A stretch of 64,000 nucleotides of DNA, from contig PLZJ01000002.1 in NCBI GenBank assembly GCA_003152105.1, positions 597,682 to 661,681 of the forward strand. Direction: 5' to 3'. Shown here piece by piece: positions 6,840 through 63,007 of this stretch; the first letter of the stretch is position 1; the number at the start of each line of letters is the position of its first letter. The notes under the pieces were generated by a model that saw nothing but the letters and a program-made list of their open reading frames with translations, was not told the DNA's origin and searched no databases. This DNA comes from Candidatus Levyibacteriota bacterium. GTDB taxonomy: Bacteria > Patescibacteriota > Microgenomatia > Levybacterales > UBA12049. A program made the position numbers and the translations under genes.

Positions 6840-6841
6840 AC

Positions 6842-8360: not shown

Positions 8361-8368
8361 AATAAATT

Positions 8369-9268: not shown

Positions 9269-9271
9269 TAT

Positions 9272-23052: not shown

Positions 23053-24138
23053 GTGAAAGTAGCAATCGTTTATGATAGAGTGAATAAATGGGGAGGCGCA
23101 GAAAGAGTATTGCTTGCCTTACATAAACTATTTCCAAATGCCCCTCTTTACACATCTGTTCATAACAATACTAGCGCACCCTGGTCAAAAGTATTTACAG
23201 TAATTCCTTCTTTTTTACAAAACTTCCCTTTTGCAAAAAATAGTCATGAATTATATCCGCTGCTTATGCCAATAGCTTTTGAATCTTTTTCATTTGATAA
23301 ATATGATCTTGTGATATCTGTAACAAGTGAATCAGCAAAAGGTATAATAACAAAACCTCACACAAAACATATTTGCTACTTACTAACCCCAACAAGATAT
23401 TTGTGGAGTGGCTATAAAAACTATTTTAAAAATGAGTATGTAAGATTTCTTAGTTACCCATTGATATGGTATTTAAGAACGTGGGATATTATTGCATCTA
23501 AAAGACCAGATGCATATATTGCTATTTCAAAAGAAGTACAAAAGCGTATTAAAAAATATTACAATGAAGAATCATTGCTCTTGTATCCTCCAGTCTATTC
23601 AAATTTAGCAAAAATGAAAAACAAAATAAAAGGAGTAGAAAGTCAAAAGCCTTATTTTTTAATTGTATCAAGACTTGTGGATTATAAAAGAATAGATATT
23701 GCAATAGAAGCATGCAATGAACTTGCTCTTCCTCTTAAAATAGTAGGGATTGGTAGTTCTGAACAAGCACTTAGAAATATAGCTGGCTCAACAATAGAAT
23801 TTTTAGGTAGCTTGACTGACGATGAGCTTATTAGGTATTATAAGGGGTGCAAAGCACTGTTATTTCCTGGACATGAAGATTTTGGATTAACAGTAATTGA
23901 GGCTCATTTATTTGGAAAGCCAGTTATAGCATACAAAAAAGGTGGAGCTCTTGAAACCATCAATGAGGGTAAAACAGGAGAATTTTTTTACCCGCAGACA
24001 AAATCAGCTCTTATTGATACAATAAGATACTTTATGAGCAAGACTTACGATGCTCAAAGTTGCAAAAAACAAGCATCGCTATTTAATGAAAAAAAATTTA
24101 ATTCAGAACTTTTGCGCATAATTGGAGAATTTATATGA
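23053..24138 (+). CDS. glycosyltransferase family 4
   Basis: GTG start immediately after an in-frame TGA; KVAIVYDRVNKWGGAERVLLALHKLFPNAPLYT N-terminus; EDFGLTVIEAHLFG motif. Confidence 0.75.
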   Translation: MKVAIVYDRVNKWGGAERVLLALHKLFPNAPLYTSVHNNTSAPWSKVFTVIPSFLQNFPFAKNSHELYPLLMPIAFESFSFDKYDLVISVTSESAKGIITKPHTKHICYLLTPTRYLWSGYKNYFKNEYVRFLSYPLIWYLRTWDIIASKRPDAYIAISKEVQKRIKKYYNEESLLLYPPVYSNLAKMKNKIKGVESQKPYFLIVSRLVDYKRIDIAIEACNELALPLKIVGIGSSEQALRNIAGSTIEFLGSLTDDELIRYYKGCKALLFPGHEDFGLTVIEAHLFGKPVIAYKKGGALETINEGKTGEFFYPQTKSALIDTIRYFMSKTYDAQSCKKQASLFNEKKFNSELLRIIGEFI

Positions 24139-25217
24139 AAATAATTGTATTTGCAGGTGGTGTCGGAACAAGACTTTGGCCATTATCTAGAAAAAATACA
24201 CCAAAACAGTTTGAGAAAATTATTGGAGAAAGATCAACACTTCAAGAAGCGGTCTTTCGTCTTCAACCTACGTTTAAACCTGATGAAATTATTGTCGCAA
24301 CGGGAATAAGATATAAAGATATAGTCGAACGACAACTTCCAGAACTTCCAAAAGAAAACTTTTTATACGAACCTGAAATGAGAGACGTGGGTCCTGCAAT
24401 TGGAATGGCGACAATGATACTAAATAAAATGGATCCAGATGAACCAATGGCAATTATATGGAGTGATCATATGGTCAAAAATGTTGAAGCATTTCAAAAG
24501 GCGCTGGAATTAGCAAAGGAAAAAGTATTAGACAGTACAGCTAAGTTTATATTTATCGGTCAAAAGCCTAGATTTGCAAATCAAAATATTGGTTGGATTC
24601 ATTGTGGTGATAAAGTAGAGGAAGAAAATAATATTGCTTTATATAAATTTAAAAAACTAAAATACAGGCCAAAACTCTCACAGGCAGAAGATTTCTTCAA
24701 AGATGAAAGTTATGTTTGGAATTTTGGTTATTTTGTCACCACGCCTCGTTTTTTGAGTGAACTATATGAAGTGTATGTTCCAGAAATGTACGCTAAATTA
24801 TCTAAAATTCAAAGCGCCTATGATACTCCTTCGTTTGAAGAAACAGTTGCAAAAATATATCCAACGCTTGAAAAATTAAGTTTTGATGACGCAATTTTGG
24901 AAAAGCTTACTCCGAAGAATATTTACGTAATCTCTGTCGATGTAGGATGGAGTGATATAGGTGCTTGGGAAGCTTTAAAGGAAGCATTAAGTACCTCATC
25001 TGATGAAAATGTAACAAAAGGAAAAGTTATGGTTGAAGATAGTAAAGATACATTAGTATTTAATTATACTAATCAACTTCTGGTTGGCATTGATCTTTCT
25101 GAAATGCTTGTTATTGCAACTGATGATGTAGTACTTGTTTGCCCAAAAACTGCAGTACCAAAAATTAAAAAATTAGTTGAAAGTTTATCCGGTACCGAAA
25201 ATGAACATTTAACTTAG
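24135..25217 (+). CDS. mannose-1-phosphate guanylyltransferase (GDP-mannose pyrophosphorylase)
   Basis: MKIIVFAGGVGTRLWPLSRKNTPKQF nucleotidyltransferase N-terminus, 360 aa. Confidence 0.8.
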   Translation: MKIIVFAGGVGTRLWPLSRKNTPKQFEKIIGERSTLQEAVFRLQPTFKPDEIIVATGIRYKDIVERQLPELPKENFLYEPEMRDVGPAIGMATMILNKMDPDEPMAIIWSDHMVKNVEAFQKALELAKEKVLDSTAKFIFIGQKPRFANQNIGWIHCGDKVEEENNIALYKFKKLKYRPKLSQAEDFFKDESYVWNFGYFVTTPRFLSELYEVYVPEMYAKLSKIQSAYDTPSFEETVAKIYPTLEKLSFDDAILEKLTPKNIYVISVDVGWSDIGAWEALKEALSTSSDENVTKGKVMVEDSKDTLVFNYTNQLLVGIDLSEMLVIATDDVVLVCPKTAVPKIKKLVESLSGTENEHLT

Positions 25218-25230
25218 ATCTCTACTTTTT

Positions 25231-25896
25231 ATGCCCAACACTGACGTTAAAAAAAGCTTACCTTACGAATTAGCTAAGCGATTGTTTGATATTATTGCTT
25301 CAATTATTTTACTCATTATTTTTTTTCCAATAATTTTAGTTGTGGCAATACTTATAAAACTTGATTCACCAGGCCCTGTTTTTGCAGATACACCTGAAAG
25401 AGTTGGCAATAAAGGGGAACTGTTTAAAATGTATAAATTCCGATCAATGATACAAAATGCACATCAATTACTTCGCGAAGATCCACAATTTTCAACTCTT
25501 TATTCTGATTATAAAACGGGTAGCTACAAATTAAAAGAAGACCCACGTATTACAAAAGTGGGTAGCTTTTTGCGAAAACATTCACTCGATGAAGTGCCGC
25601 AGTTTATAAATGTGCTATTTGGTGATATGAGTTTAGTGGGCCCAAGAGCATATTATCCTGATGAGCTTCGAGATCAACAAAAAAAATACCCAAACACCAA
25701 GGAAGCAGTCAAAATTGTGTTATCAGTCAGGCCAGGAATAACAGGATACTGGCAAGTTAATGGAAGAAGTCAAATTAATTTTGATAAAAGAATTGAAATG
25801 GATGCAACGTATGTGAGAAAACGATCAATGATTTATGACTTGTATATTATCTTACAAACACCGTGGGCTATGATATCTGGCAAAGGGGCACTTTAA
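25231..25896 (+). CDS. initiating polyprenyl-phosphate hexose-1-phosphate transferase (bacterial sugar transferase domain, WbaP/PssY type)
   Basis: Single TM helix then LFKMYKFRSM and DEVPQFINVLFGDMSLVGPR motifs. Confidence 0.85.
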   Translation: MPNTDVKKSLPYELAKRLFDIIASIILLIIFFPIILVVAILIKLDSPGPVFADTPERVGNKGELFKMYKFRSMIQNAHQLLREDPQFSTLYSDYKTGSYKLKEDPRITKVGSFLRKHSLDEVPQFINVLFGDMSLVGPRAYYPDELRDQQKKYPNTKEAVKIVLSVRPGITGYWQVNGRSQINFDKRIEMDATYVRKRSMIYDLYIILQTPWAMISGKGAL

Positions 25897-39292: not shown

Positions 39293-40281
39293 AGCAAGAT
39301 TCAATACTAAAAGAATTAAAGCAAGAACTTGGTGCTCATAGAGTTAAAAGTAACGAGCCAATGAGAAATCACACCTCATGTAAAATTGGTGGAATGGCTA
39401 TTTATTATTTTGAAGCCGAAACTGCTACTGATCTAATGAAGGCATTCTTACTTTCCTATAAACTACATATTCCAGTTTATATATTAGGCGGAGGATCTAC
39501 CGTCTTATTTTCAGATAAAGGTTTCAACGGCTTTGTTATAAAAAATAATACAAGAAAATTTGATATTTTCGGCATGAGTGGAAAAATTGCAAACAGAAAA
39601 CTTAGTGTTGATAAAACAATTTTATATGCTGAATCAGGAGTTTTAACAAATCAGGTAGTACGTTTTAGCATTGAACATGGATTTTCAGGGCTTGAATATC
39701 AGCTAGGTTTACCTGGTACAATTGGAGGAGCAATAGTTATGAACGCAGGGTACTTCCCAAGAAATGTTTACTTAAAAGATGCATTATTTAAAATAAAAAT
39801 ACTTAATTGTCAGGGTGAACTTAAGGAGGTTGATACTACTTATTTAGCAACCACAATTGGCAAAAGTAAGCTTGCAAGTTGTGAGGAAATTATTGTTTCA
39901 GTAACGTTTATACTTGAGGCAAAAGATAAAGCACAACTATGGGAAAGAGGCAATGAGGCAAGTGCATATAGAGCAACATATTATCCAAATGGTATGTCAT
40001 TGGGACTTGCTTTTGGAGATATTTCAATTGCAGATGCTATGAAAATTCCAACTCCTCAAAGTATTACATCAGCAGATTTTTTAATAAAAAATGCCGGAAT
40101 TAAAAAGAAGCAGATTGGGGATGCGATGATATCATCTCTTCATAGCAATTTTATTACAAACAACGGAAATGCAACTGCTTTAGATGTCATGAATTTATTT
40201 GAAGAAATAAAACAAAGTGTCAAAACAAAGTTTGGAGTTTCGTTACCGATTCAAAGTAACGTAATAGGATTTAATGAATAA
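39289..40281 (+). CDS. murB: UDP-N-acetylenolpyruvoylglucosamine reductase MurB
   Basis: FAD-binding N-terminal region with IPVYILGGGSTVLFSDKGFNGFVIK. Confidence 0.8.
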   Translation: MKQDSILKELKQELGAHRVKSNEPMRNHTSCKIGGMAIYYFEAETATDLMKAFLLSYKLHIPVYILGGGSTVLFSDKGFNGFVIKNNTRKFDIFGMSGKIANRKLSVDKTILYAESGVLTNQVVRFSIEHGFSGLEYQLGLPGTIGGAIVMNAGYFPRNVYLKDALFKIKILNCQGELKEVDTTYLATTIGKSKLASCEEIIVSVTFILEAKDKAQLWERGNEASAYRATYYPNGMSLGLAFGDISIADAMKIPTPQSITSADFLIKNAGIKKKQIGDAMISSLHSNFITNNGNATALDVMNLFEEIKQSVKTKFGVSLPIQSNVIGFNE

Positions 40282-41608
40282 ATTTATTGTTCAAGGTGGT
40301 AAAGTATTAAATGGAACAACAAATGTATCCGGTGCTAAAAACGTGGCATTAAAAACTCTTGTTGCAGCATGTCTTACCTCTGAAAAGGTAACTATTGAAA
40401 ACATTCCTCTTATTTCAGATTTTTTTGTAATGGTAGATATTATGAAAGATTTGGGAATATCTGTTGTAATAACTGATCATGGGGTTGAAATAGAGGCAAA
40501 AGAAATAAAGAAACATCAAATTCCATTAGATAAAGCAGCGCTTGCTAGAACATCTTCTATGTTTATTTCTCCACTACTTGCGCGAGTTGGCGAAGCGATT
40601 ATACCTAATCCAGGTGGTTGTAGACTTGGTGCACGTCCAATAGATAGAACAATAGAAGGAGTAAAACAACTCTCTGCTACAATTTCATATTTTAGTGATG
40701 ATGGGTATTTCCATGCAAAAACGACTGGATTAAAAGGTGCCACCTACAGATTTGAGAAAAACACACATACTGGTACAGAAACACTTATCCTAACTGCGGT
40801 TTTGGCAAAAGGTACGACAATTTTAGAAAACGCAGCTGAAGAACCGGAAATTGATGAATTAATAGATTTATTAAACAAAATGGGAGCAAAAGTAAAAAGA
40901 ACAAGTAAAAGAAAAATAGAAATTATTGGTGTAGATAAACTTCATGGAACACACTTTCGTATACAACCAGATAGAAATGAAATAATAACATTTGCCATTG
41001 CAGCTATCATCACCAAAGGCGATGTTTTTATAAAAGATGCAAACCCGCTTGCGATAAAAGATTTTCTTGAACAGCTAGACCAAGCGCATGGAGGATATGA
41101 AGTTAAAAAAGACGGAATACGTTTTTATTATAAAGATCAGTTAGTTGCAACTGATACTACTACAAGTATTTTTCCTGGATTTATGACTGATTGGCAAGCT
41201 CCATGGGCAGTATTAATGACACAAGCTACAGGAGTGTCACTTGTCCATGAAACGGTATTTGAAAATAAGTTTGGCTATGTTAAAGATTTAAAGAGAATGG
41301 GAGCAAAAATTGAACTATTTAATCCTTCTGTTGAAAAACCAGAAGAACTGTATAATTTTAACTTAGCAGATGATAAAAAAACGTATTTTCATGCAATTCG
41401 CGTATATGGACCAACACAGCTTCATGATGCAGTTGTTTCGACAATTGACATACGAGCAGGAGCTGCAATAGTACTTGCAGCGCTGGTTGCAAAAGGAAGA
41501 ACAACAATATTTGGCATTGAGAAGTTAGATCGTGGATATGAAGATTTCGAAAAGAGATTAACTAATATTGGAGCTAGTATAAAGCGTTTAAAGGAGGAAG
41601 ATGAATAA
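40274..41608 (+). CDS. murA: UDP-N-acetylglucosamine 1-carboxyvinyltransferase MurA
   Basis: MNKFIVQGGKVLNGTTNVSGAKNVALKTLVAACL; EPSP-synthase-like fold, 444 aa. Confidence 0.9.
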   Translation: MNKFIVQGGKVLNGTTNVSGAKNVALKTLVAACLTSEKVTIENIPLISDFFVMVDIMKDLGISVVITDHGVEIEAKEIKKHQIPLDKAALARTSSMFISPLLARVGEAIIPNPGGCRLGARPIDRTIEGVKQLSATISYFSDDGYFHAKTTGLKGATYRFEKNTHTGTETLILTAVLAKGTTILENAAEEPEIDELIDLLNKMGAKVKRTSKRKIEIIGVDKLHGTHFRIQPDRNEIITFAIAAIITKGDVFIKDANPLAIKDFLEQLDQAHGGYEVKKDGIRFYYKDQLVATDTTTSIFPGFMTDWQAPWAVLMTQATGVSLVHETVFENKFGYVKDLKRMGAKIELFNPSVEKPEELYNFNLADDKKTYFHAIRVYGPTQLHDAVVSTIDIRAGAAIVLAALVAKGRTTIFGIEKLDRGYEDFEKRLTNIGASIKRLKEEDE

Positions 41609-42359
41609 CAAAAATCAGGTATTTGGTTCAATTATACTTGCTGCTGGAAAAGGGAGACGAATGCAATCTGAGACATTTAACAAGGTAAGTTTGCATTTAG
41701 CAAATAAGCCAATGATTTTACATATTATTCATTTTATGCAAAAACTACCTATCCAAAGCATAGTCGTAGTAGTCGGGTATGCGAAAGAATCAGTCATGAA
41801 TGCGTTAAAAAATGAAAACGTATTATTTGCAGAACAAGAAGAACAATTGGGTACCTCACATGCGGTAAGAGTTGGGCTTGGTAAATTACCAAAAACAATT
41901 ACTGACGTTTTAATTGTGTATGGTGATGACGCTGTTTTATATATTGAGAAGCAATTACATCTTATTCAAAAGCTCTTTTCAACACATCAGGAAAGTGATG
42001 CTGTCGTAACATTTCTAACTATTGATCAAGAAAATCCGTTTGGTTTAGGAAGAATTATTCGAAATAATGAAGGAGAAGCTGTAGCAATAATTGAAGAAAA
42101 AGATGCTACTGAAGAACAAAAGAAAATTAAAGAAATTAATCCAGGCTGCTACTTATTTCAAGTAGATTTTTTAAATGAATATTTACCAATAGTAAAAAAA
42201 AGTCCAGTTACTGGAGAATATTATTTAACTGATTTGGTTGACATAGCAATAGAAAATAATAAGATTGTTAAAACCGTTCAGGGAGGAATGGTGCTCTGGA
42301 GGGGCGTAAATACACCAGAAGAGTTAGAAGAAGCGCATAAATTAATGGAGCTACAGTAA
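41601..42359 (+). CDS. GlmU-like sugar-1-phosphate uridylyltransferase, N-terminal domain only (no LbH acetyltransferase domain)
   Basis: IILAAGKGRRMQSETFNKVSLHLANKPMILHII matches the GlmU N-terminus (ILAAGKGTRMKSxLPKVLHPLAGKPM); 252 aa. Confidence 0.65.
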   Translation: MNNKNQVFGSIILAAGKGRRMQSETFNKVSLHLANKPMILHIIHFMQKLPIQSIVVVVGYAKESVMNALKNENVLFAEQEEQLGTSHAVRVGLGKLPKTITDVLIVYGDDAVLYIEKQLHLIQKLFSTHQESDAVVTFLTIDQENPFGLGRIIRNNEGEAVAIIEEKDATEEQKKIKEINPGCYLFQVDFLNEYLPIVKKSPVTGEYYLTDLVDIAIENNKIVKTVQGGMVLWRGVNTPEELEEAHKLMELQ

Positions 42360-42360
42360 T

Positions 42361-42816
42361 ATGGATCAAGAAATATATGTTAAAGAAGTAAAAAATGTTA
42401 CCGAAGAAGTCGTTTCCTCAATCTCATCACTAATCAAAGAACTTGGAACGACCTTTGAACCATTTACAAAAGAAACACTTGAAAAGATACTTCGCAGTGA
42501 AAATACCTTTTTGTATATTGCCATAGATCAAATGACAAATAAAATTGCAGGCATGATTACGCTTTGTGTATTTACCATACCATACAGAACCAAAGGTTGG
42601 TTGGAGGATTTAGTAGTAGATAAATCTTTTAGAGGTAGAGGTGTGGGTTCAATGCTTTTAGAACACGCTATTGAAAAAGCCAAAAGCCAAAAAGTTACTT
42701 CACTTAATTTAAGTTCTTCAATTTCTCGAAATCAAGCCTCCAAACATTTATACGAAAAACACGGATTTGTTATAAGAGATTCTCATATTTATCGCTTGCT
42801 TCTTTCCTATGAATAA
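42361..42816 (+). CDS. GNAT family N-acetyltransferase
   Basis: Acetyl-CoA motif LVVDKSFRGRGVGSMLLEHAIEKAK, 151 aa. Confidence 0.75.
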   Translation: MDQEIYVKEVKNVTEEVVSSISSLIKELGTTFEPFTKETLEKILRSENTFLYIAIDQMTNKIAGMITLCVFTIPYRTKGWLEDLVVDKSFRGRGVGSMLLEHAIEKAKSQKVTSLNLSSSISRNQASKHLYEKHGFVIRDSHIYRLLLSYE

Positions 42817-43468
42817 TTGGTTTGATACAGTTATTCTGCTCGATATTGACGGTACGTTATTTCATACGGAAATTTTTAGAAATAATATTTTTAATAAACT
42901 CTACTCTTATCATACATCTGGTTCAAAAGAAGCATTTTTACAACAAGTAAGGAGTATATATAAAAACGAAAGAGATAAAAAAATTACAAATCCCAAGACA
43001 ATACTTAAAACAATTAATACACAATTGCAACTTAACATTCCTGAGGAAAAATTAATGGAATTGATAATTGAAGGAGATAACTTTTTCGATGGTATGTATG
43101 ATGAAGTGGAGAAAACGATCCAAGACCTTTCAAAAAAAGGGATAACGCTTGGTATTTTATCAACGGGAGAAACACAAATTCAAAAAACAAAGATTTCATC
43201 TATTCAAAACTTTATTAATGAAGAAAATATTCATATCTATAATTTAAAAGATACAGAAATAGACCAAGTATTTGCCAAATATAAAGACATGCGTATATAT
43301 GTAATTGATGATTTCTTAGATTTCTTACTCCTCATTAAGAAAAAAAACAATGTGGTAAAAACTGTTTGGATTAACAGAAAAAATAGTGCTTTACCAAATG
43401 ATATAGAAGATGATTATTTACCAGATTATCAAATAAAAACACTTGATGAGCTATTAACGATTATATAA
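42809..43468 (+). CDS. HAD superfamily hydrolase / phosphomutase-like
   Basis: Motif I VILLDIDGTLF (DxDGT), motif IV YVIDDFLDF. Confidence 0.6.
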   Translation: MNNWFDTVILLDIDGTLFHTEIFRNNIFNKLYSYHTSGSKEAFLQQVRSIYKNERDKKITNPKTILKTINTQLQLNIPEEKLMELIIEGDNFFDGMYDEVEKTIQDLSKKGITLGILSTGETQIQKTKISSIQNFINEENIHIYNLKDTEIDQVFAKYKDMRIYVIDDFLDFLLLIKKKNNVVKTVWINRKNSALPNDIEDDYLPDYQIKTLDELLTII

Positions 43469-43471
43469 CAT

Positions 43472-45235
43472 ATGTGCGGAATTTTTGGATATATTGGTAA
43501 AAAAGATACTGCTGCACCAATTATTCTTGAAGGATTGAAATTACTTGAATATAGAGGATATGATTCGTGGGGAATTGCTGTTGTTACAAATGGTCACATA
43601 GAAATCCAGAAACAAATTGGCAAAATTGAAGGAGTGCAAACATCCCTTCCTAAAAGTAGTATTGGTATAGGTCATACAAGATGGGCAACGCATGGGGGAA
43701 TTACAAAAATAAACGCGCATCCTCATTTTGATTGTACAAAGCAAATAGCCTTACTCCATAACGGTATAATAGAAAATTTTCTAGATCTTAAAAAGGAATT
43801 ATTAAAAAAGGGTCATGTCTTTCTATCAGAAACAGATACAGAAGTCGCTGTGCATTTAATTGAAGAATATGCAAAAACTACCTCACTTTCAAATGCAGTT
43901 GAGAAGTGTTTCAAAAGGTTAAAAGGATTAAATGCACTTGTTGTACTCTCACTTCTTACAAATGAAATTATTGCAATTAAAGTTGGCTCACCACTCATTG
44001 TAGGAATTGGAAAAGAAGAATATTTTATTTCGTCTGATCCAATAGGAATTGCAAGTCACACAAAAAATGTATATTTTGTACAAGATAATCAATTAATACA
44101 GCTTGGAAAGACATTTGAAATAAGAGATTGTAGTTCAGGGCTATATATTACTCCAACTATAACAGTTATTGACTGGGATTATAAATCTTCATTAAAAGGA
44201 AAATATAAACACTTTGTACTAAAGGAAATATATGAACAACCAGTAATTATTACTCAAATTGCAAAGTATGGGAAAGAAGATGTGCAAAAATTAACAAATG
44301 AAATTGAACGTGCCTACGGTACTTTTATTGTTGGATGTGGTAGTGCTTCTTACGCAGCATTATATGGTACTTATTTATTTTCAAAAGTTGCGAAAAAACA
44401 CATAAACTTTTCAATTGGTTCAGAATTTAATTACTTAGAAGATTATTTAACTAAGAAATCATTGGTAATTGGAATTTCTCAAAGTGGTGAAACAATTGAT
44501 GTAGTTGAGCCACTTTCTAAAGCGCTTAAAAAAGGTTCACAAATTGCCGTAATTACCAATGGTCTTGGTTCGACTATGTACCGGTTAGCTGATACGAAAC
44601 TATTTCTTAATGCAGGAGTAGAAAAAGCAGTTATGTCCACAAAAGCATTAATCGCAATGCTGTCGGTTCTACTTCTTTGTGCATATTCATTTGAAAAAAA
44701 ACAAAATGAAGGAAGTCTATTACTAGAAGCGGCTGCAAAAGATGTGAAGCGAATTCTATCAGTAACTGAAGTTAATAAGATAAAAAAATTAGCAAAGAAA
44801 TTAGCACCGCGTCAACATATTTATTTAATCGGAAGAGGTCTTTCTTATGCCGCAGTACTTGAAATAACATTAAAGTTAAAAGAAGCGGCGTATATACACG
44901 CAGAAGGATTTGCCGGGGGAGAACTCAAGCATGGAAGCTTAGCCTTAATTGAGAAAGGTTCGGTTTGTATTGTTGTTGCACCAAATGACGAGACATATGC
45001 CTCAATTATTTCAAATGCCCAAGAAGTTAAAGCAAGAGGTGGATATATTATCGGATTCTCACCAATCGATAATCAAGTATTTGACTACTTTTTAAAAACA
45101 GCAGATCTAAAAGAAGCAACTATTATTCCACAAGTCGTCATAGGACAGCTTCTTGCATATTATCTTGCAATAGAAAAAGGAGTAAAAGATCCTGATAAGC
45201 CAAGAAATCTTGCAAAAAGCGTCACGGTGAAGTAA
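43472..45235 (+). CDS. glmS: glutamine--fructose-6-phosphate aminotransferase GlmS
   Basis: MCGIFGYIG Ntn amidotransferase start, two SIS domains, 587 aa. Confidence 0.9.
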   Translation: MCGIFGYIGKKDTAAPIILEGLKLLEYRGYDSWGIAVVTNGHIEIQKQIGKIEGVQTSLPKSSIGIGHTRWATHGGITKINAHPHFDCTKQIALLHNGIIENFLDLKKELLKKGHVFLSETDTEVAVHLIEEYAKTTSLSNAVEKCFKRLKGLNALVVLSLLTNEIIAIKVGSPLIVGIGKEEYFISSDPIGIASHTKNVYFVQDNQLIQLGKTFEIRDCSSGLYITPTITVIDWDYKSSLKGKYKHFVLKEIYEQPVIITQIAKYGKEDVQKLTNEIERAYGTFIVGCGSASYAALYGTYLFSKVAKKHINFSIGSEFNYLEDYLTKKSLVIGISQSGETIDVVEPLSKALKKGSQIAVITNGLGSTMYRLADTKLFLNAGVEKAVMSTKALIAMLSVLLLCAYSFEKKQNEGSLLLEAAAKDVKRILSVTEVNKIKKLAKKLAPRQHIYLIGRGLSYAAVLEITLKLKEAAYIHAEGFAGGELKHGSLALIEKGSVCIVVAPNDETYASIISNAQEVKARGGYIIGFSPIDNQVFDYFLKTADLKEATIIPQVVIGQLLAYYLAIEKGVKDPDKPRNLAKSVTVK

Positions 45236-45260: not shown

Positions 45261-46859
45261 TTGTTTATGAGTATTTTATATCTTGTTGTTAGTACAGGAT
45301 TTTTTTTATGGATTACTAGAAATATATTTTTCTGGGTTTATTTGTGGCAACATAATGACTATAGCTATACGAGAATGTATACACATTTAAAGGAAACGAC
45401 GCAGGGAAGATATATTCTATTTTCTCCTGTGGCATTTCTTAAGTTACTCCTTATCTTTCTTTTTGCATATATTGTCTTAAATCCAGATTTTTTAGCAGGC
45501 TATCAATTTTTAATAGGTGTTTTATTTGTTGTGCAAGGGTTTTCAGTTATAAAAGAATATTATTTACACACACTTTATTTGCCAAAATTTACTATTAAAG
45601 CTATGGTGTTTTGTATAAGTGCACTTTTTATTGCAGTTGCTCTTTACACAATTCCGTTGACACAAGACAGATATTTTTGGTTATTAATCATTGATAAAGG
45701 TGTCTTATTTTTTATAACGTTTCTCGTATTTATTTTAAGTTTACCAACAAATTTATACAAAGATTGGTATACAGATGCGGCAATGAGAAAATTAAATAAA
45801 AATAAAAATATTACTGTTATTGGTGTTACGGGGAGTTATGGGAAAACTACTACCAAAGAATTTATTGCACAAATTTTAAAAAATAAATTCAATGTAGTTA
45901 AAACACAAAATCAACATAACACTTCTTTTGGCATAGCAAAAACAATTACTGATAAAGTTAATCCTAAGACACAAATTATTGTTGCTGAAATGGCAATGCA
46001 TAAAAGAGGAGATGTGAGGGAAATGGCTGAAATTGTATCACCAAAATTTGGTGTAATAACAGGTATTAGTTCACAGCACGCTTCATTGTCAGGTGATATA
46101 TCAAAAACAATGGACGCAAAGTATGAGCTTATTCAATCACTACCAAAAGATGGGTTGGGTTTATTTAATGGAAATAATGAAAATGTCTATAAATTATATA
46201 AAAAAACTAAGAAAAGAAAAGTATTATATGGGTATCAAAACGGATTTCCATATGATGTGAAAGCAACAAATATCCATATCCAAAAATCTTATATTGAATT
46301 TGAAGTTGAGCTGCGTGGCAAAAAAATGCACTTTAAATCACCACTTATTGGACCTCAGAATATTGAAAACATATTGCCGGGAATAATACTTGCAGACACA
46401 CTTGGTATGAAACCTGAAGAAATCAAAAAGGCAGTACTTTCACTTTCCTCATTACCAAAAACTATGCGAAAAAGAAATACGGTTTCAGGAGCCACTATTA
46501 TTGATGACACGATTAATACAGATACACATGCGGTGCTTGCTGCTTTGGAATATATGAAACTTTTTAAAAATAAACGCATCTTTGTACTTCAGCCAATGAT
46601 TGAACTAGGTAAAAGGGCAAGTAGTGAGCACTATGAAATCGCAAAAAAGATATCAGTTGTATGTGATTATCTTTTTTTAACTAATAAAAATTTCTATAAA
46701 TCAATACTTAAAGGTATAGTAGATGGTGATGGGGAATGTTTTGTAAAAGTAGATAGTAGTAAAAATATTGCCAAATTTTTAAGAGAAAATTGTTCTTCCC
46801 ATGATGTCGTTGTTTTCGAAGGAAAAGAAGCAGAAATTGTACTCGAGGAAATTTTGTGA
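45261..46859 (+). CDS. murF: Mur ligase, MurF-like (UDP-MurNAc-tripeptide--D-Ala-D-Ala ligase) with a roughly 170-aa N-terminal multi-TM extension
   Basis: ITVIGVTGSYGKTTTKEFIAQIL P-loop and TIIDDTINTDTHAVLAALEYM (DDSYNANP-like). The first 170 aa form 4-5 hydrophobic helices. Confidence 0.65.
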   Translation: MFMSILYLVVSTGFFLWITRNIFFWVYLWQHNDYSYTRMYTHLKETTQGRYILFSPVAFLKLLLIFLFAYIVLNPDFLAGYQFLIGVLFVVQGFSVIKEYYLHTLYLPKFTIKAMVFCISALFIAVALYTIPLTQDRYFWLLIIDKGVLFFITFLVFILSLPTNLYKDWYTDAAMRKLNKNKNITVIGVTGSYGKTTTKEFIAQILKNKFNVVKTQNQHNTSFGIAKTITDKVNPKTQIIVAEMAMHKRGDVREMAEIVSPKFGVITGISSQHASLSGDISKTMDAKYELIQSLPKDGLGLFNGNNENVYKLYKKTKKRKVLYGYQNGFPYDVKATNIHIQKSYIEFEVELRGKKMHFKSPLIGPQNIENILPGIILADTLGMKPEEIKKAVLSLSSLPKTMRKRNTVSGATIIDDTINTDTHAVLAALEYMKLFKNKRIFVLQPMIELGKRASSEHYEIAKKISVVCDYLFLTNKNFYKSILKGIVDGDGECFVKVDSSKNIAKFLRENCSSHDVVVFEGKEAEIVLEEIL

Positions 46860-53282: not shown

Positions 53283-54371
53283 ATGGCAGAATCTAAAAGT
53301 GAACAAGGAAGAAGTCCAAGAATAGATATTGTTGGCGGTGGAGTATCAGGATTAAACACAGGTATTGAAGCATTAAAAAGTGGAAAACAAGTAAGAATAT
53401 TTGAAGCTGAACCATACAATCCGACTTTAGCTCAAAATCCCGAGCAACAGAGAATCATCCGTAGGGCATCTGATGCTGGATCTGCACAGTGGTATCCATA
53501 CGTTGAAGGAGGTCTTAATAAAGGAGAGCAAGAAGATCAACTTCAGTGGATGGAGGATGCATTAGATAGTTATTTAGAAAGAGAAATTGTTGAAGGATAC
53601 AGTTCAGCAATGGCAAGACGAAGAAATTTTGAATTAATGAGGGATGCAGAGCCTATGCCAGATTATTTAAGAGGGATGCTCGAAAAGTTTGGCCCTGTAA
53701 AAGAATTTGGAGATGTTCCTAAGAATCCTCTTGAGTATTCTTATGGATATGATTTTACAACTCTTGCAATTAATTCACCTGCTATGCTAACAGCTTTAAG
53801 ACAGGAATTCAATGAGTTAGGAGGAAATTTTGTATCCAAAAAAATAGAATCTGCTGATGAATTTTATGAATTGCCTGGAGATGTATTAGTAAATTGTACA
53901 GGCCTTGGTTCATCTGAATTATTCCCCGATACAGGCTAAGAGGCTGTAAAGGGACATATGCTATTTTATAAAAATCCTGGAATAGATACTATTGTAAGCG
54001 CTGAGGATTTAATAGTTCTTCCTAGATCAGATAATTTGCTAGTTGTAGGAGCTTTATATCTTCATGAAGGAGACTATAGTACTGATGATCCAACTATTCC
54101 AGAAAGACAAGATATTCTTAAACGAATTAATCATATGATAGGAATTGATTTAAAGGAATTTGATCAACTAAAAGAGCAATTAAAAAAAGCAGAATATATG
54201 GGAGAAACTTCTGGTTTTCGTCCGTACAGAAAAGCAGGGACTTTAGTCACTGCAACTTCAGGACCAAATGACAAGATAGTTGTACACAATGTAGGACATG
54301 GGGGAATGGGATGGACACTAGCTGGAACCGGAAAAGCAGCACTTAGAGAGATTAATAAAGCATTGAAATAA
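53283..54371 (+). pseudogene. FAD-dependent oxidoreductase, DAO family (glycine / D-amino-acid oxidase-like), interrupted by in-frame TAA at 53937-53939
   Basis: IDIVGGGVSGLNTG dinucleotide-binding N-terminus in ORF 53283..53939; the C-terminal GHGGMGWTLAGTGKA motif is in the same frame after the stop (53958..54371). Read-through gives PDTG*EAVKGHMLF, matching the conserved PxKGQxL region. Confidence 0.5.
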
Positions 54372-56252: not shown

Positions 56253-57482
56253 TTAAATATTAGAGCTGATTTCTTTACTAATGGATATGGCTGTTACCGG
56301 AGACTGTGTAAATCCTCCTGCTGAATGTCCAACAGCAATGATAATTGGTAATTTATTTTTGTGATTCACCACTAGCGTGGGAACTCCTGTTGGAGTAGCT
56401 GGTCTTATGCAATAAGATGTTGCTTTTATCGTTGAATCGGGAAGCCATTGTTTTACTTCTTTAAGCATATCGTCCATTATTGGTTTTGCAAGTAACGAAG
56501 CTTCATTATGAGGTCTACTTCCAACAAATCCATACCCTCCACTAAGAAGAAGACTTGTTTTACTTGGAGTAATATTGATGTAATTAACTGGTTCAGGTCC
56601 ATATATTTTACATGCTACTTTTATACCAGGATTATCCACTTCAACCCAACAACCAATAACACCTGCAAGTAGTACGTTAAACTTGCTTAAAAGTTGAGTA
56701 GTATCCAAAGATACACCACTACAACAAACAAGAGCATCTGCTTTTAGATTCTCGAAGTAATAATCAGAACTTAGCAAGTGTTTATCTGAAATTGTTGTAT
56801 CCCAAATAAAAGTCGTACCCAATTTACTCAAATATTCAACAATGTTATGACATATTGATTTAGCATAATAAGCACTACCAAACAAAGTAAAATATCCAAA
56901 ACCTCCAAGCATTGAGAGCCTATTATTAAATGGTAAAAGTGTGTCTGGTAAAACTTGGTTTTCACATAATCTTACTCTTTTATCAAGAGAATGTTCATAT
57001 GTAAATTCTGAAAGTAAATCATCTTTGCTCCTGCAAATTATCGGCATTACAGTGTCGTGTTTAAAAGGTTGTAGAAAGTCATATTTATTTCCTAATAGTT
57101 CCCACATTCGAATCCCTTCTTTATTTAAATTTATTACTACGGAAGTATTAAGATCATGTGATTTTGTGTCTTGTGATGTTTCCTTAAATTTTGAAATCCA
57201 TTCCACTTCTAGCTTATTTAGTTTGTTTTTTGGTATGCAAAGCCAGCCTTTTTCTGAAGAATTTTTCGTAATTAGTTCGAAGCGGTGACTCGACGTCCAG
57301 GGGGCTGTTTCAGTATAAGAAATGTGTCTTGCATCAAAACCACTATATGTTGCACCGTGTGTATGACTATTATGTTTTGGGTTTGGACCAGCATCAATGA
57401 CCGTAATTTTATATTTTTTTGAGAGTTCTAAGGCTGTCATTAGTCCTGTTATACCTGCTCCAATAATTGCAATGTGTTTCAT
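56253..57482 (-). CDS. FAD-dependent oxidoreductase, DAO family
   Basis: MKHIAIIGAGITGLMTALEL N-terminus and C-terminal IIIAVGHSAGGFTQSPVTA. ATG preceded by TGaTATAAT (57497-57489, minus strand) 6 nt upstream. Confidence 0.6.
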   Translation of the reverse strand: MKHIAIIGAGITGLMTALELSKKYKITVIDAGPNPKHNSHTHGATYSGFDARHISYTETAPWTSSHRFELITKNSSEKGWLCIPKNKLNKLEVEWISKFKETSQDTKSHDLNTSVVINLNKEGIRMWELLGNKYDFLQPFKHDTVMPIICRSKDDLLSEFTYEHSLDKRVRLCENQVLPDTLLPFNNRLSMLGGFGYFTLFGSAYYAKSICHNIVEYLSKLGTTFIWDTTISDKHLLSSDYYFENLKADALVCCSGVSLDTTQLLSKFNVLLAGVIGCWVEVDNPGIKVACKIYGPEPVNYINITPSKTSLLLSGGYGFVGSRPHNEASLLAKPIMDDMLKEVKQWLPDSTIKATSYCIRPATPTGVPTLVVNHKNKLPIIIAVGHSAGGFTQSPVTAISISKEISSNI

Positions 57483-61270: not shown

Positions 61271-61299
61271 TTGACAATAGTCTCATTTGAGCCTACAAT
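61271..61299 (+). promoter_or_regulatory. consensus promoter TTGACA-17-TACAAT for the hexokinase-CYTH gene
   Basis: Hexamers at 61271-61276 and 61294-61299, 10 nt before ATG 61310 (the track start 61271 is the TTG inside the -35). Confidence 0.5.
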
Positions 61300-61309
61300 A
61301 AGCTCTTCT

Positions 61310-63007
61310 ATGTCTGCACTTCTCGAAAATGAAGCAAGTAGTAGTAGCATGGAGAAATTAGCCCCAGTTCCTTCTTCGTTGTTGTATTCAATAGATGATC
61401 TTAAGCGCTTTTCAGGTAATTTCCGAAATGAATTAGCAAGAGCTTGTAATGGTCAAGAAAGTAGTCTTTCAAATAACGCACATGACATCCCTTCGTTTTC
61501 TCATGTTAAAGAGGGTGAATATTTTCAGGCTTTTGTGGTTGGAGGAACAAATTATAAAACCGCCTTAATGCAAAGAACTGGTGAAGGTGCTAATTTGCTT
61601 GATGTAAGTAGATGTGTAATAGGACCTTCGGCAACTGATGTTGATATTATTACACTTATTACAGCTAGTATTGATCCAAGGTCAACAGTAGTAGGTTTAA
61701 ATTTTGCATTTCCTATGAAGCCGGTTGATAGAGACGGTGTATTAGATGGCATACTACTTGGTGCTACTAAGGAACGAAAGTTTAAAAAATATATTGGCCA
61801 AGAGATAGGAAAAGTAATTGAAGATGAAATAGTTAGGATTCATGGTCGTAAAATCAAAGTTACGGTTGCAAATGATACAGCTTGCCTTGCGATTGCTGGA
61901 ATAGAAGGAGATAATGCGAATAAAATTGCCGCTGGAGTTGTTGGAACTGGTTTAAATTTTGCAATTAGCCATCAAGGTAAAATCATAAATCTTGAATCAG
62001 CAAATTTTGATAAATTTGAACAAACTGAAACGGGTAGGCAAATAAACAGAGAATCAAAAGCAAAAAATAAAGCTCTCTTTGAAAAAGAAGTATCAGCTGG
62101 TTATCTTTATTTACATCTTAAAAAGATCTTAGAATCAGAAGGAGAGGACGCCTCGCATATCACAAGTACTGAAGATGTAAGTATCATCGCCTCAGCGAAT
62201 GATGGAAGTAAGGCATCTGAATACGCAAATACACTTCTTGAGAGATCTGCATCACTTGTTGCTGTTCAGATTGTTGCAATTTACGAATTCATGGAGCAAC
62301 CACAAATAACAATGGTTATGGAAGGCAGTTTATTTACAAAGTCTCCTCGATATAGAAGTCATGTTGAAAGATATCTTAAAGAACTTGGAGTACCAGAAAA
62401 TGGAGTTATGTTCCAAAGTTATCAAGAAAGTGATCTATTAGGTGCTGCCAAACTTGCCGCAATTGAAGAAACTACCATGTCTTTTCCAGAAACAGTTCCA
62501 ATGGAAGAAATTGAGAGTCGATTCTTACTTTCAGATATTCCCGAAGATTTACAAAGTGCAATACGATGTGGAAAAATAGAACAAATGCAGCAAGGATATT
62601 TATCAAGTTCAGAAAGAATTAGAAAAGTAATATATGAAGGGGGATTAACGCTTTACACGATTGTTGATAAAAAACCAGTACCGGGAAAACCAGATTATGT
62701 TAAGGATGATGAACCAATGGTGATTGGAAGAGATGAGTTTATGAGAAAATGGAAATTAATTAAAGGGTATCCAATTTTCAAAACCAGATTTCTTCTCGAT
62801 AATTCCGCGGTTGAGCCTCATAAGGGAAAAATTGTTATTGATAGTTTTGAAGGAAAATTTAATGATATAAATCTAATTGAAGTAGAGTTCGAATCATTAG
62901 AAGATTGTGACAGTTTTGTTCCATTGTCATGGTTTGGACCAGAAGTAACGCAAACTGTCTCAAGTAGTAAACTAGCGCATAACAATGCTCGAGTACCTCA
63001 ATTGTAA
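61310..63007 (+). CDS. eukaryote-type hexokinase (PF00349/PF03727-like) fused to a C-terminal CYTH triphosphate-tunnel domain
   Basis: Hexokinase motifs in order: AFVVGGTNYK, LNFAFPM, AAGVVGTGLNFAI, INLESANFDKF, VMEGSLFTKSPRYRSHVERYL, LLGAAKLAA. C-terminal EEIESRFLL (ExExK/R) and IVIDSFEGKFNDINLIEVEFES are CYTH hallmarks. Confidence 0.75.
   Translation: MSALLENEASSSSMEKLAPVPSSLLYSIDDLKRFSGNFRNELARACNGQESSLSNNAHDIPSFSHVKEGEYFQAFVVGGTNYKTALMQRTGEGANLLDVSRCVIGPSATDVDIITLITASIDPRSTVVGLNFAFPMKPVDRDGVLDGILLGATKERKFKKYIGQEIGKVIEDEIVRIHGRKIKVTVANDTACLAIAGIEGDNANKIAAGVVGTGLNFAISHQGKIINLESANFDKFEQTETGRQINRESKAKNKALFEKEVSAGYLYLHLKKILESEGEDASHITSTEDVSIIASANDGSKASEYANTLLERSASLVAVQIVAIYEFMEQPQITMVMEGSLFTKSPRYRSHVERYLKELGVPENGVMFQSYQESDLLGAAKLAAIEETTMSFPETVPMEEIESRFLLSDIPEDLQSAIRCGKIEQMQQGYLSSSERIRKVIYEGGLTLYTIVDKKPVPGKPDYVKDDEPMVIGRDEFMRKWKLIKGYPIFKTRFLLDNSAVEPHKGKIVIDSFEGKFNDINLIEVEFESLEDCDSFVPLSWFGPEVTQTVSSSKLAHNNARVPQL

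Follow-up and report, generated by a model that had tools for sequence, protein, structure and literature searches.

A probable modular UDP-GlcNAc supply cassette with an exchangeable acetyltransferase gene in the division and cell-wall operon of a Levybacteria-like Patescibacterium

Introduction

Two activities are combined in the bifunctional GlmU, which is GlcN-1-P acetyltransferase and GlcNAc-1-P uridylyltransferase in one protein, and the first consumer of UDP-GlcNAc is the product of murA. In reviews, the bacterial enzyme is presented as bifunctional (PMC10087520). Besides GlmU, there are the archaeal-type bifunctional nucleotidylyltransferase/acetyltransferases (TIGR03992, ST0452-like) and the small GNAT enzymes of the GNA1 type. 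An independent origin of GNA1 activity has been described in Apicomplexa (PMC5838249), and in C. parvum GNA1 the variants Y127A and R141A are reported to be inactive (PMC7587441). Here we describe a locus in which these functions appear to be distributed differently. It lies in a window of 64,000 nucleotides (the whole stretch of DNA analysed) from the small genome, about 1.15 Mb, of a Levybacteria-like member of the Patescibacteria.

Results and Discussion

The genes at 41601-45235 lie within a tightly packed operon of division and cell-wall (dcw) genes that extends from murA to ftsZ. murA (40274..41608; UDP-GlcNAc enolpyruvyl transferase, EPSP_synthase domain) overlaps the start of a short glmU (41601..42359) by 8 nt with its 3' end. 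The short glmU is followed by genes for a GNAT acetyltransferase (42361..42816), a HAD-superfamily protein (42809..43468), GlmS (43472..45235) and a murF-like Mur ligase (45261..46859; Mur_ligase_M/C domains). All are encoded on the + strand, and the four ORFs from glmU to glmS were found where the first-pass annotation had placed them. The junctions between consecutive genes from murA to glmS measure -8, +1, -8 and +3 nt, which points to a single operon. Dozens of independent genomes and contigs from metagenomes show the same arrangement, which is therefore neither a chance juxtaposition nor an assembly artefact. In every related locus murA is located directly upstream of the short glmU. The proposed GlmS (glutamine--fructose-6-phosphate aminotransferase, 587 aa) is present and intact: it starts with MCGIFGY and thus has the N-terminal Cys, contains a GATase and two SIS domains, and reaches 591 bits with TIGR01135 (cutoff 418).

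The 252-aa GlmU matches only positions 4-236 of the 452 positions of TIGR01173 (209 bits, cutoff 367), and in solved GlmU structures it finds a counterpart only at residues ~5-250. Within this part the catalytic motifs are retained; LAAGKGxRM, QEEQLGT, YGD, GxGRI, EEKDAT, EINxG, GEYYLTD and GVN are conserved, and the motifs quoted in the first-pass annotation are present (ILAAGKGRRM...NKVSLHLANKPM). The proposal that this protein is the N-terminal pyrophosphorylase domain without the left-handed beta-helix (LbH) domain was thus borne out; judged by its sequence, the GlmU of this genome has lost its acetyltransferase half and is a predicted GlcNAc-1-P uridylyltransferase. The best 120 database matches are all short too (239-275 aa), and the reduction to the uridylyltransferase domain holds throughout the clade.

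Which gene follows the short glmU differs between relatives. In 78 related loci, which are phylogenetically related so that association counts here and below overstate independence, the slot directly after glmU contains a GNAT in 27, a stand-alone LbH protein in 9, an archaeal-type GlmU in 7 and no acetyltransferase in 35. Thus at least the genomes of the last group must have another acetyltransferase elsewhere. The acetyltransferase types never occur together in one of these loci, and the gene order of the variable cassette between glmU and mraY is invariably acetyltransferase-HAD-glmS-murF, with the murF-like gene as its last member. The stand-alone LbH proteins match positions 211-392 of TIGR03992 (1e-42), i.e. 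the acetyltransferase half of the archaeal-type GlmU, and the slot proteins of 413-421 aa match this model over its full length. In a neighbour-joining tree of MurA plus GlmU the types are interleaved among close relatives: the archaeal-type loci L016 and L018 cluster with the GNAT locus L017, and the LbH loci L022 and L028 are sisters to the GNAT loci L011/L012 and L079/L080, respectively. In some relatives the slot is also occupied by a gene of the CofD/YvcK family, to which the GlmS regulator GlmR belongs (PMC7525490).

Mutual exclusivity and interleaving at one slot argue that the GNAT is most likely a hexosamine-phosphate N-acetyltransferase gained by non-orthologous displacement. Since it is located where relatives carry the missing GlmU half as a separate gene, it very probably replaces this half. 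That the gene after glmU encodes a GNAT of 151 aa had been noted before and is confirmed by the Pfam domain Acetyltransf_1 (2.2e-18). When its structure model, which is of only moderate quality (pLDDT 71) with a poor C-terminus, was searched with Foldseek, T. brucei GNA1 was the top match and C. parvum GNA1 had the best TM-score (0.75/0.79); the GNA1 proteins of Arabidopsis, yeast, human and C. elegans were also among the top 50. With a profile of the GNAT family, C. parvum GNA1 was the only full-length match among the top ones (1.5e-13). Its residues T117, Y127 and R141 align with T/S118, the invariant Y131 and the near-invariant R145 of the family, whereas R73, H81 and R113 are not conserved according to our own mapping. 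The suggested relationship to GNA1 stands insofar as GNA1 proteins are among the nearest solved relatives; it is not exclusive, however, as GNATs of the RimI, streptothricin, polyamine and HPA2 types reach equal scores, and none of the curated thresholds of GNAT family models is reached. All close relatives of the GNAT in JGI metagenomes are found in a murA-glmU-GNAT-HAD context. Probably the GNAT works like GNA1 on GlcN-6-P, with GlcN-1-P as the alternative substrate.

The 219-aa protein encoded next gives a weak but real match to the HAD superfamily (PF00702, 5e-7). Its orthologues show no variation in the four HAD motifs D12-x-D14, S118, K147 and D168, Asp+2 included, and the protein is predicted to be catalytically competent, with a phosphatase or a phosphomutase reaction. 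The HAD family is small and lineage-specific (296 representatives), and it is functionally coupled to the acetyltransferase. HAD genes are present in 31 of the 43 loci with an acetyltransferase, compared with 2 of the 35 without, and three protein clusters (P0183, P0256, P0267) are fusions of the HAD to the nucleotidyltransferase and LbH domains of an archaeal-type GlmU. This indicates that the HAD protein acts in the UDP-GlcNAc pathway.

The first-pass annotation had suggested that the HAD protein could be a phosphomutase of the beta-phosphoglucomutase (beta-PGM) type, and this assignment found no support. The best matches of the family profile are the phosphatase-type HADs 2p11 (4e-17), PH1655 (1e-9) and N-acylneuraminate-9-phosphatase (NANP, 2e-7), whereas beta-PGM is matched with 1e-4 over the N-terminal half only. 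Among 29 family members, 27 match the NCBIfam model CTE7 and 19 the YjjG nucleotidase model (full length), compared with one for PGMB/YqaB and four for PpaX, all of these scores being far below the family cutoffs. In place of the beta-PGM distal-phosphate loop its members carry the NANP/CTE7-like motif (S/T)xGxxxxQxxK(I/L). A helical C1-type cap is indeed present in the copy of the window. Yet it is poorly conserved, with 22% identity where present versus 37% for the core, and it is missing in 18 of 35 orthologues. Both the resemblance of the family and the fact that the cap is dispensable speak for a phosphatase more than for a beta-PGM-like mutase.

A search of the window in all six frames gave no alpha-D-phosphohexomutase signature (S/T-x-S-H-N-P or DxDxDR), in agreement with the earlier statement that the window contains no GlmM, and a Pfam scan of 30 window ORFs outside the dcw cluster gave no such domain. 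The motif was likewise not found in the 86 loci L001-L086, which include 80 related genome loci, nor in 44 metagenome loci (L089-L132) except for a probably spurious 200-aa minus-strand ORF in L112/L113. There was no phosphohexomutase domain among the precomputed Pfam matches of the two 10-kb flanks; the inspection for glmM or a second full-length glmU thus covered about 84 kb of the genome. The window contains a ManC-like gene, from which the presence of some hexose-phosphate mutase would follow in any case, and GlmM activity can be a moonlighting function of general phosphoglucomutases (PMC6797236).

A probable interpretation of these results is that the dcw operon carries, directly after murA, a modular cassette for UDP-GlcNAc supply. 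GlmS would supply GlcN-6-P. The acetyltransferase step would be split off as a separate, exchangeable gene in the slot after the short glmU, here the GNAT, which would acetylate like GNA1, and the short GlmU would convert GlcNAc-1-P and UTP to UDP-GlcNAc. Domain content, synteny, the alternation at the slot, the fusions and the conserved residues are observed, whereas the order of reactions and the substrates assigned to the GNAT and to the HAD protein are inferred. The step from the 6-phosphate to the 1-phosphate may be catalysed by an alpha-D-phosphohexomutase encoded elsewhere in the genome. The HAD protein would be functionally coupled to the acetyltransferase, by resemblance more as a phosphatase than as a beta-PGM-like mutase.

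The first-pass annotation had instead proposed a complete pathway independent of GlmM, in which the GNAT acetylates the GlcN-6-P made by GlmS as GNA1 does and the HAD protein is the phosphoacetylglucosamine or phosphoglucosamine mutase that serves the short GlmU. Whatever the acetyltransferase type, its gene together with those for the HAD and GlmS gives exactly one gene for each of the three steps before GlmU. HAD-type mutases do exist (beta-PGM, eukaryotic PMM), and the intact catalytic motifs, the coupling and fusions of the HAD and the empty searches for a phosphohexomutase are consistent with this role. We nevertheless consider it rather unlikely. The HAD mutases known so far require a closing cap, and both the profile matches and the distal motif point away from beta-PGM. 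Moreover, the HAD is missing in 7 of the 34 loci with an acetyltransferase that extend through to mraY, six loci (two of which end before mraY) pair an acetyltransferase and glmS without a HAD, and the ManC-like gene implies a mutase elsewhere. Capless HADs such as GmhB act beside a nucleotidyltransferase in the heptose pathway, and by analogy the HAD protein could yield a sugar-1-phosphate without a mutase, either as a GmhB-like 6-phosphatase on GlcN(Ac)-1,6-bisphosphate or as an amino-sugar-6-phosphate phosphatase of the MupP type that supplies an anomeric kinase. The resemblance to NANP-type N-acyl-sugar-phosphate phosphatases and class III HADs, the fusion to a sugar-1-P nucleotidyltransferase/acetyltransferase and a cluster of the heptose type a short way upstream of the window (with a PfkB-kinase/cupin and a cytidylyltransferase-like/HAD fusion) would fit. 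This route appears improbable, however, as it spends extra ATP, none of the related loci has a kinase gene as part of the cassette, and the Pfam scan of the window found no APH, GHMP or PfkB kinase.

Equally improbable is an accessory hydrolase that removes a by-product, i.e. PPi from the uridylyltransferase or UMP and other nucleotides as NagD/YjjG do, next to a conventional mutase elsewhere. A nucleotidyltransferase fusion would suit a pyrophosphatase, and the HAD pyrophosphatase BT2127 is among the profile matches (1.5e-5) along with the PpaX and YjjG matches, albeit all supporting family matches are far below cutoffs. Small substrates normally need cap residues, yet here the cap is dispensable, and the HAD tracks the acetyltransferase and not GlmU, as 33 of the 35 loci without an acetyltransferase have the short glmU and no HAD. 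Finally, GNAT and HAD could be unrelated passengers of the operon, e.g. a RimI-like enzyme that acetylates proteins and a phosphatase with a housekeeping role, with hexosamine acetylation being done by another enzyme encoded elsewhere. Among the weak NCBIfam matches, RimI is the most consistent (28 of 28 GNAT members, best 1.9e-12), but with at most about 42 bits it stays far under the 86-bit cutoff. The relatives that manage without an acetyltransferase in the slot would agree with passengers; a passenger would not be expected to alternate repeatedly, and in mutual exclusion, with LbH acetyltransferases of the GlmU type at one position, nor the GNAT family to be confined to its conserved context, and we regard this explanation as very improbable.

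Comparison with known systems

With GlmM, the cassette proposed here has nothing in common except the pathway step that it leaves vacant. The HAD protein shares the DxD nucleophile/general-acid pair and, in the window, the helical C1-type cap with beta-PGM, but differs from it in family model and in the loss of the cap in half of the orthologues. It is closer to the CTE7/NANP/YjjG phosphatases, with which it has the four motifs, the signature and the best profile matches in common, and its capless orthologues resemble the class III HADs (GmhB, MDP-1). Unlike the former, it belongs to a separate, small family with a variable cap and a unique genomic context.

The archaeal-type proteins of TIGR03992 fill, whole or as the isolated LbH half, the slot of the GNAT in relatives, but none is present in the window, whose sole LbH protein (13898-14491) is a WcaF/WbbJ-type polysaccharide O-acetyltransferase. 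Compared with bacterial bifunctional GlmU, the N-terminal domain is of the same type (about 35-40% identity to solved GlmUs), whereas neither the linker helix nor the LbH acetyltransferase domain is present. The GNAT differs from eukaryotic and apicomplexan GNA1 in the lack of a specific family-level match, in several GlcN6P-binding residues and in being a bacterial gene in a dcw operon. With GNA1 it shares the size of a small GNAT, the close structural and sequence matches, counterparts of its catalytic Tyr and of its essential C-terminal Arg, and the context of the UDP-GlcNAc pathway.

Gene order and the short GlmU

All four genes of the cluster were found on the forward strand at the coordinates claimed for them in the first-pass annotation. 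The first (GlmU-N; 41601-42359) encodes a GlmU-type protein of 252 aa, the second (GNAT; 42361-42816) a 151-aa protein of the Acetyltransf_1 family, and the third (HAD; 42809-43468) a 219-aa protein with a weak yet genuine HAD match. They are followed by glmS (43472-45235), whose 587-aa product is full length and intact: it scores 591 bits against TIGR01135 (cutoff 418), carries at its N-terminus the MCGIFGY of the N-terminal Cys amidotransferase domain, and contains two SIS domains. The genes belong to a compact operon with the order murE-murC-murB-murA-[glmU-N, GNAT, HAD, glmS]-murF-mraY-ftsW-murG-ftsQ-ftsA-ftsZ. The junctions around the four genes measure -8, +1, -8 and +3 nt, the HAD start overlapping the GNAT stop by 8 nt. 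In the 64-kb window neither a glmS ribozyme nor any other Rfam family reached the gathering threshold, no tRNA genes were found, and promoter and terminator scans returned no more than chance level. Nearly all genes of the window lie on the forward strand, the cumulative GC skew is positive and the G+C content is about 32%.

GlmU-N aligns to positions 4-236 of the 452 positions of TIGR01173 with 209 bits, which is below the curated cutoff of 366.85, and its alignment to solved GlmU structures is confined to residues ~5-250. Its motifs for binding nucleotide and sugar are retained (LAAGKGxRM, QEEQLGT, YGD, GxGRI, EEKDAT, EINxG, GEYYLTD and GVN). No Hexapep domain was found in it with Pfam, and the protein ends at residue 252. 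Thus the proposal that this GlmU is reduced to the uridylyltransferase domain and lacks the C-terminal left-handed beta-helix (LbH) acetyltransferase domain holds. Among the best 120 of 7,910 GlmU-N homologues every one is 239-275 aa long, and a short glmU ORF directly after murA could be called in 78 of 80 related genome loci. Hence the short form is the rule in this clade and cannot be put down to a truncation artefact in the assembly.

The source genome (~1.15 Mb) is of the reduced CPR type. Identical proteins are encoded on the 1.139 Mb metagenome scaffold WOOD18-1 (ENA ERZ28653421) and on a 1.149 Mb NCBI contig, and the closest species-representative genomes are Levybacteria/Patescibacteria MAGs with a GlmU-N identity of at most 63%. 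Many MAGs with a Levybacteria-type dcw operon (L007, L010, L011 and others) bear the title 'uncultured Gammaproteobacteria bacterium' and a few carry the names Sulfotelmatobacter, Acidiferrales or Lysobacterales, almost certainly by mislabelling or mis-binning. The database names of the cassette proteins are likewise generic or wrong, and automatic annotation is misleading here: in JGI the short GlmU is called 'bifunctional GlmU' and the GNAT protein 'phosphinothricin acetyltransferase'.

An exchangeable acetyltransferase next to GlmU-N

The ORFs of the 80 loci were called and classified by BLAST against the window proteins and by HMMs built from the loci. Between glmU-N and mraY (78 loci), no acetyltransferase gene is present in 35; the others contain a cassette with the constant order acetyltransferase - HAD - glmS - murF, in which the presence of single members varies. 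The position directly after glmU-N is occupied by a GNAT protein of 144-159 aa in 27 loci, by a stand-alone hexapeptide (LbH) protein of ~212 aa in nine, and by a 413-421-aa protein in seven. The last of these matches TIGR03992, the model for archaeal-type GlmU (a bifunctional sugar-1-P nucleotidylyltransferase/acetyltransferase), over its full length. The ~212-aa proteins match TIGR03992 positions 211-392 (~1e-42), i.e. its C-terminal acetyltransferase half, and share 31-42% identity with the corresponding halves of the 413-421-aa proteins. A GNAT and an LbH-type protein never occur together in one of the 78 loci.

In a rough neighbor-joining tree of concatenated MurA and GlmU-N, calculated without support values, the three acetyltransferase types are interleaved among close relatives. 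Two loci of the archaeal type (L016 and L018) group with a GNAT locus (L017), and loci with a stand-alone LbH protein are sisters to GNAT loci in three places (L022 to L011/L012, L028 to L079/L080, and L073 to L084). In JGI metagenomes, which were scanned with a tighter subset of the GNAT alignment, close relatives of the GNAT protein were found solely in the context murA-glmUN-GNAT-HAD. The distant matches were judged unrelated: L112-L114 have a high-GC context, L119 has glmS nearby with sigma-factor and transketolase genes in between, and L120-L132 represent a 1013-aa gut protein.

This repeated, mutually exclusive replacement beside a uridylyltransferase that has no acetyltransferase domain is the main evidence on the function of the GNAT protein, and indicates that it is a hexosamine-phosphate N-acetyltransferase. 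Its suggested role as a stand-in for the missing GlmU domain is thereby supported, as it alternates at one and the same position with GlmU-type LbH proteins.

Resemblance of the GNAT protein to GNA1

The GNAT protein reached no curated family threshold; its commonest weak match was RimI, far under the cutoff of that family. When a profile of 28 orthologues was searched against the sequences of solved structures, C. parvum GNA1 (6yug) was the second-best match (1.5e-13) and the only top match aligned over the full length; the GlcN-6-P N-acetyltransferases (GNA1) of C. elegans, T. brucei, human and Arabidopsis were matched as well. The AlphaFold model of the GNAT protein was built from a shallow alignment (pLDDT 71) and is poor at the C-terminus. 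With this model, the top match in Foldseek was T. brucei GNA1 (3fb3) and the best TM-score was obtained for C. parvum GNA1 (0.75/0.79), with the Arabidopsis, yeast, human and C. elegans enzymes among the top 50. Among the Foldseek matches GNA1s hold ranks 1, 6 and 7, and among the profile matches rank 2. However, this likeness is not exclusive: streptothricin, polyamine and HPA2-type GNATs score about as well as the GNA1s in the profile search, and in Foldseek the E-values of other small GNATs are nearly equal. The resemblance to GNA1 suggested initially is supported insofar as GNA1s are prominent among the top matches and key residues are conserved.

For residue mapping, the HMM alignment was placed on the published numbering of C. 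parvum GNA1 (PMC7587441). T117, Y127 and R141 of that enzyme correspond to T/S118, the invariant Y131 and the near-invariant R145 of the GNAT family. Y127 is catalytic and the Y127A variant inactive; R141A is inactive too, and R141, which is conserved in human GNA1, is thought to touch the phosphate (PMC7587441). The GNAT protein thus has the GNAT fold, and of GNA1 it keeps the catalytic Tyr and the C-terminal Arg that lies near the phosphate. K78, R123 and R139 are also invariant or nearly so in the family and would suit an anionic substrate. R73, H81 and R113 of C. parvum GNA1 are not conserved in the mapped alignment. At the position of H81 the GNAT family has an Asp within an E-D pair, as do canonical GNA1s. 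The GNAT protein is predicted to work in a GNA1-type manner, on GlcN-6-P or GlcN-1-P. That GNA1 activity can arise independently among GNATs has a precedent in Apicomplexa (PMC5838249).

Neighboring genes in the window and in related loci

Some related loci deviate from the usual cassette. In L032, L049 and L059 a CofD/YvcK-family gene (~328-348 aa) is found at the cassette position, between glmU-N/HAD and mraY; the CofD domain was identified by Pfam for L049, to which the other two sequences are near-identical. GlmR of B. subtilis, a member of this family, binds UDP-GlcNAc and controls GlmS (PMC7525490), and the presence of such a gene fits a UDP-GlcNAc supply module. Six loci (L046, L062, L067, L070, L073 and L085) have, after glmS/murF, genes for an alpha/beta-hydrolase (~235 aa) and a DegT/DnrJ/EryC1 sugar aminotransferase (~406-416 aa). 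In L011 the usual HAD position is taken by a 232-aa gene of opposite orientation (11203-11901, reverse strand); its motifs WNIWGG...LQEV...GDFN...SDHLPL make the product look like a member of the endonuclease/exonuclease/phosphatase family. In L026 a 936-aa ORF (6690-9500) joins glmS (residues 1-566) to murF-like sequence, which is probably due to a frameshift or assembly read-through and was not accepted as a true fusion.

The first part of the window (1-29826, forward strand) is a large surface-glycan cluster with many GT2/GT4 glycosyltransferases, an epimerase/dehydratase, methyltransferases and a DUF4012 protein. It includes a ManC-like GDP-mannose pyrophosphorylase (24135-25217), a Bac_transf priming transferase (25231-25896) and four large ORFs without a family (3339-6839, 1166 aa; 7077-8360; 8369-9268; 10122-10982). 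The only other LbH protein of the window (13898-14491) is a polysaccharide O-acetyltransferase of the WcaF/WbbJ type inside this cluster and was ruled out as the missing GlmU acetyltransferase. The upstream flank on the same contig (L087, 2782-5075) codes for a heptose-type nucleotide-sugar pathway, here in a Patescibacteria genome: a PfkB kinase that carries a cupin/mannose-P-isomerase-like domain as a fusion, a second fusion protein that joins a cytidylyltransferase-like domain with a HAD phosphatase, and a glycosyltransferase of family 9 (heptosyl).

Downstream, a 578-aa ORF (61271-63007, forward) matches the eukaryote-type Hexokinase_2 family (2.9e-17), which is unusual in a CPR genome, and no NCBIfam model; the database version of the gene uses another start codon and has 565 aa. 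It could be relevant to hexosamine salvage. Two adjacent short ORFs (53283-53939 and 53958-54371), both of the FAD-dependent oxidoreductase (DAO) family, look like the two pieces of a single gene interrupted by a frameshift or stop; a whole DAO gene is located close by on the reverse strand (56253-57482).

The HAD family and its link to the pathway

D12, D14, S118, K147 and D168 are invariant in 29 HAD orthologues and T16 is nearly so; hence HAD motifs I (DxDxT), II (S/T), III (K) and IV (DD) are all present. With all four motifs kept, the protein is predicted to be catalytically competent.

The gene is closely linked to the acetyltransferase. It is found in 31 of the 43 loci with an acetyltransferase gene versus 2 of the 35 without (Fisher p ~1e-9, with loci that are not phylogenetically independent), and of the 19 metagenome loci that reach past GNAT, 18 have it directly after the GNAT gene. 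The exception is L111; L108 stops at GNAT and is outside this count. A word-indexed homologue search returned nothing beyond the HAD protein itself, and relatives were traced with HMMs run on the related loci and by an exhaustive search of representatives. The family is very small: among 1.84 billion sequences, 296 representatives were found at E<=1e-3 and 147 at E<=1e-10. In three of the representative clusters a full archaeal-type GlmU (NTP_transferase plus Hexapep) is fused to a C-terminal HAD domain, which is capped in P0183 (643 aa) and capless in P0256 (582 aa) and P0267 (579 aa); P0270 is a fragment of such a fusion. The linkage to the acetyltransferase and these fusions show that the HAD protein is part of the UDP-GlcNAc pathway.

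Possible reactions of the HAD protein

The first-pass annotation had suggested that the HAD protein could be a mutase of the beta-phosphoglucomutase (beta-PGM) type. The family comparisons and the state of the cap argue against this. The solved structures closest to the HAD profile are the uncharacterised HAD 2p11 (4e-17), PH1655 (1e-9) and N-acylneuraminate-9-phosphatase (2e-7), whereas beta-PGM structures were matched at 1e-4 and over the N-terminal half only. Among curated families, the 29 members matched CTE7 (27), class IIIC (20) and YjjG nucleotidase (19), all below the cutoffs; the PGMB/YqaB model TIGR02009 matched a single member, at 0.004. A closing cap is essential in the known HAD mutases. 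The window protein does have a helical insertion (residues ~20-109, four predicted helices in a low-confidence single-sequence AlphaFold model, pLDDT 50), but the insertion is not conserved in the orthologues. It is wholly absent (window residues ~27-95) in 18 of 35, which are about 155-162 aa long, and among the 17 capped forms identity is 22% in the cap, as opposed to 37% in the core, with not one cap residue invariant. In any case the cap type of the window protein is common to many phosphatases. A mutase function is therefore not supported, and we regard it as improbable.

The pathway context nevertheless counts for a role of some kind in the supply of 1-phosphate sugar. The claimed absence of a GlmM-type alpha-D-phosphohexomutase from the window was corroborated: the GlmM signatures (S/T-x-S-H-N-P and DxDxDR) had no match in its six frames nor in the ORFs of L001-L086. 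No alpha-D-phosphohexomutase domain was detected by Pfam in 30 scanned ORFs outside the dcw cluster, and no GlmM-type gene in the two 10-kb flanks of the window, which brings the region covered to ~84 kb of the ~1.15 Mb genome. Among all loci scanned, the motif occurred only in L112/L113, which are unrelated and high in GC; it lies there in a minus-strand ORF of 200 aa and is probably spurious. Together with the fusions to nucleotidyltransferase-LbH enzymes and with a cassette that offers one gene for each of the three steps before GlmU-N, the lack of a GlmM-type gene in ~120 loci and in 84 kb around the window would agree with a new kind of phosphohexosamine mutase, or another source of 1-phosphate sugar, in a four-gene GlmM-independent route to UDP-GlcNAc. 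Yet the ManC-like gene in the window implies the presence of some hexose-phosphate mutase in this genome, and general phosphoglucomutases can moonlight as GlmM (PMC6797236). In view of this and of the phosphatase-like profile matches, we consider the four-gene pathway unlikely, and the chance that the HAD protein is a phosphomutase in the strict sense is similarly small.

A 1-phosphate pool could also be fed by a bisphosphate or 6-phosphate phosphatase. In GmhB-style routes a kinase and a phosphatase acting on the remote phosphate yield the sugar-1-phosphate, and the heptose-type cluster just upstream, with its PfkB kinase/cupin and cytidylyltransferase-like/HAD fusions, is a precedent for a non-mutase route in the same genome. 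However, the hexosamine cassette contains no kinase, and we judge this function very unlikely. Hydrolysis of a by-product (PPi or a nucleotide) is just as much of an outside chance. The rest of the probability falls to a phosphatase role that is not defined further.

Comparison with known pathways

In reviews, bacterial UDP-GlcNAc synthesis proceeds through GlmS, GlmM and bifunctional GlmU; GNA1-type acetylation with separate enzymes is the eukaryotic arrangement, and bifunctional GlmU counts as a drug target specific to bacteria (PMC10087520). Nothing relevant came up when full texts were searched for GlmU, GlmM or UDP-GlcNAc synthesis in connection with Patescibacteria, CPR, Microgenomates or Levybacteria. 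Here a clade-wide split of GlmU goes together with an exchangeable acetyltransferase, including a GNA1-like GNAT, and an associated uncharacterised HAD family. A large uncultured bacterial clade has thus dismantled GlmU and fills the acetyltransferase step with a GNAT, an LbH or an archaeal-type enzyme, which gives a clear case, found in nature, of non-orthologous displacement that happened repeatedly, and the GNAT protein is a candidate for a third independent origin of a GNA1-like enzyme. The HAD family is tiny, unannotated in the sources examined and fused to pathway enzymes in some organisms; its activity bears on whether these reduced genomes lack GlmM altogether. If it were the 1-phosphate source, a eukaryote-like reaction order would have been built from non-orthologous bacterial parts.

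Compared with bifunctional GlmU, the window protein has the uridylyltransferase domain and its motifs without the C-terminal LbH domain. Like eukaryotic GNA1 the GNAT protein is small and keeps the equivalents of the Tyr and Arg, whereas those of R73, H81 and R113 differ. The HAD protein shares the catalytic motifs of beta-PGM, but the closing cap is not conserved in its orthologues. Taken together, this is a known pathway in an altered form and not a new kind of system.
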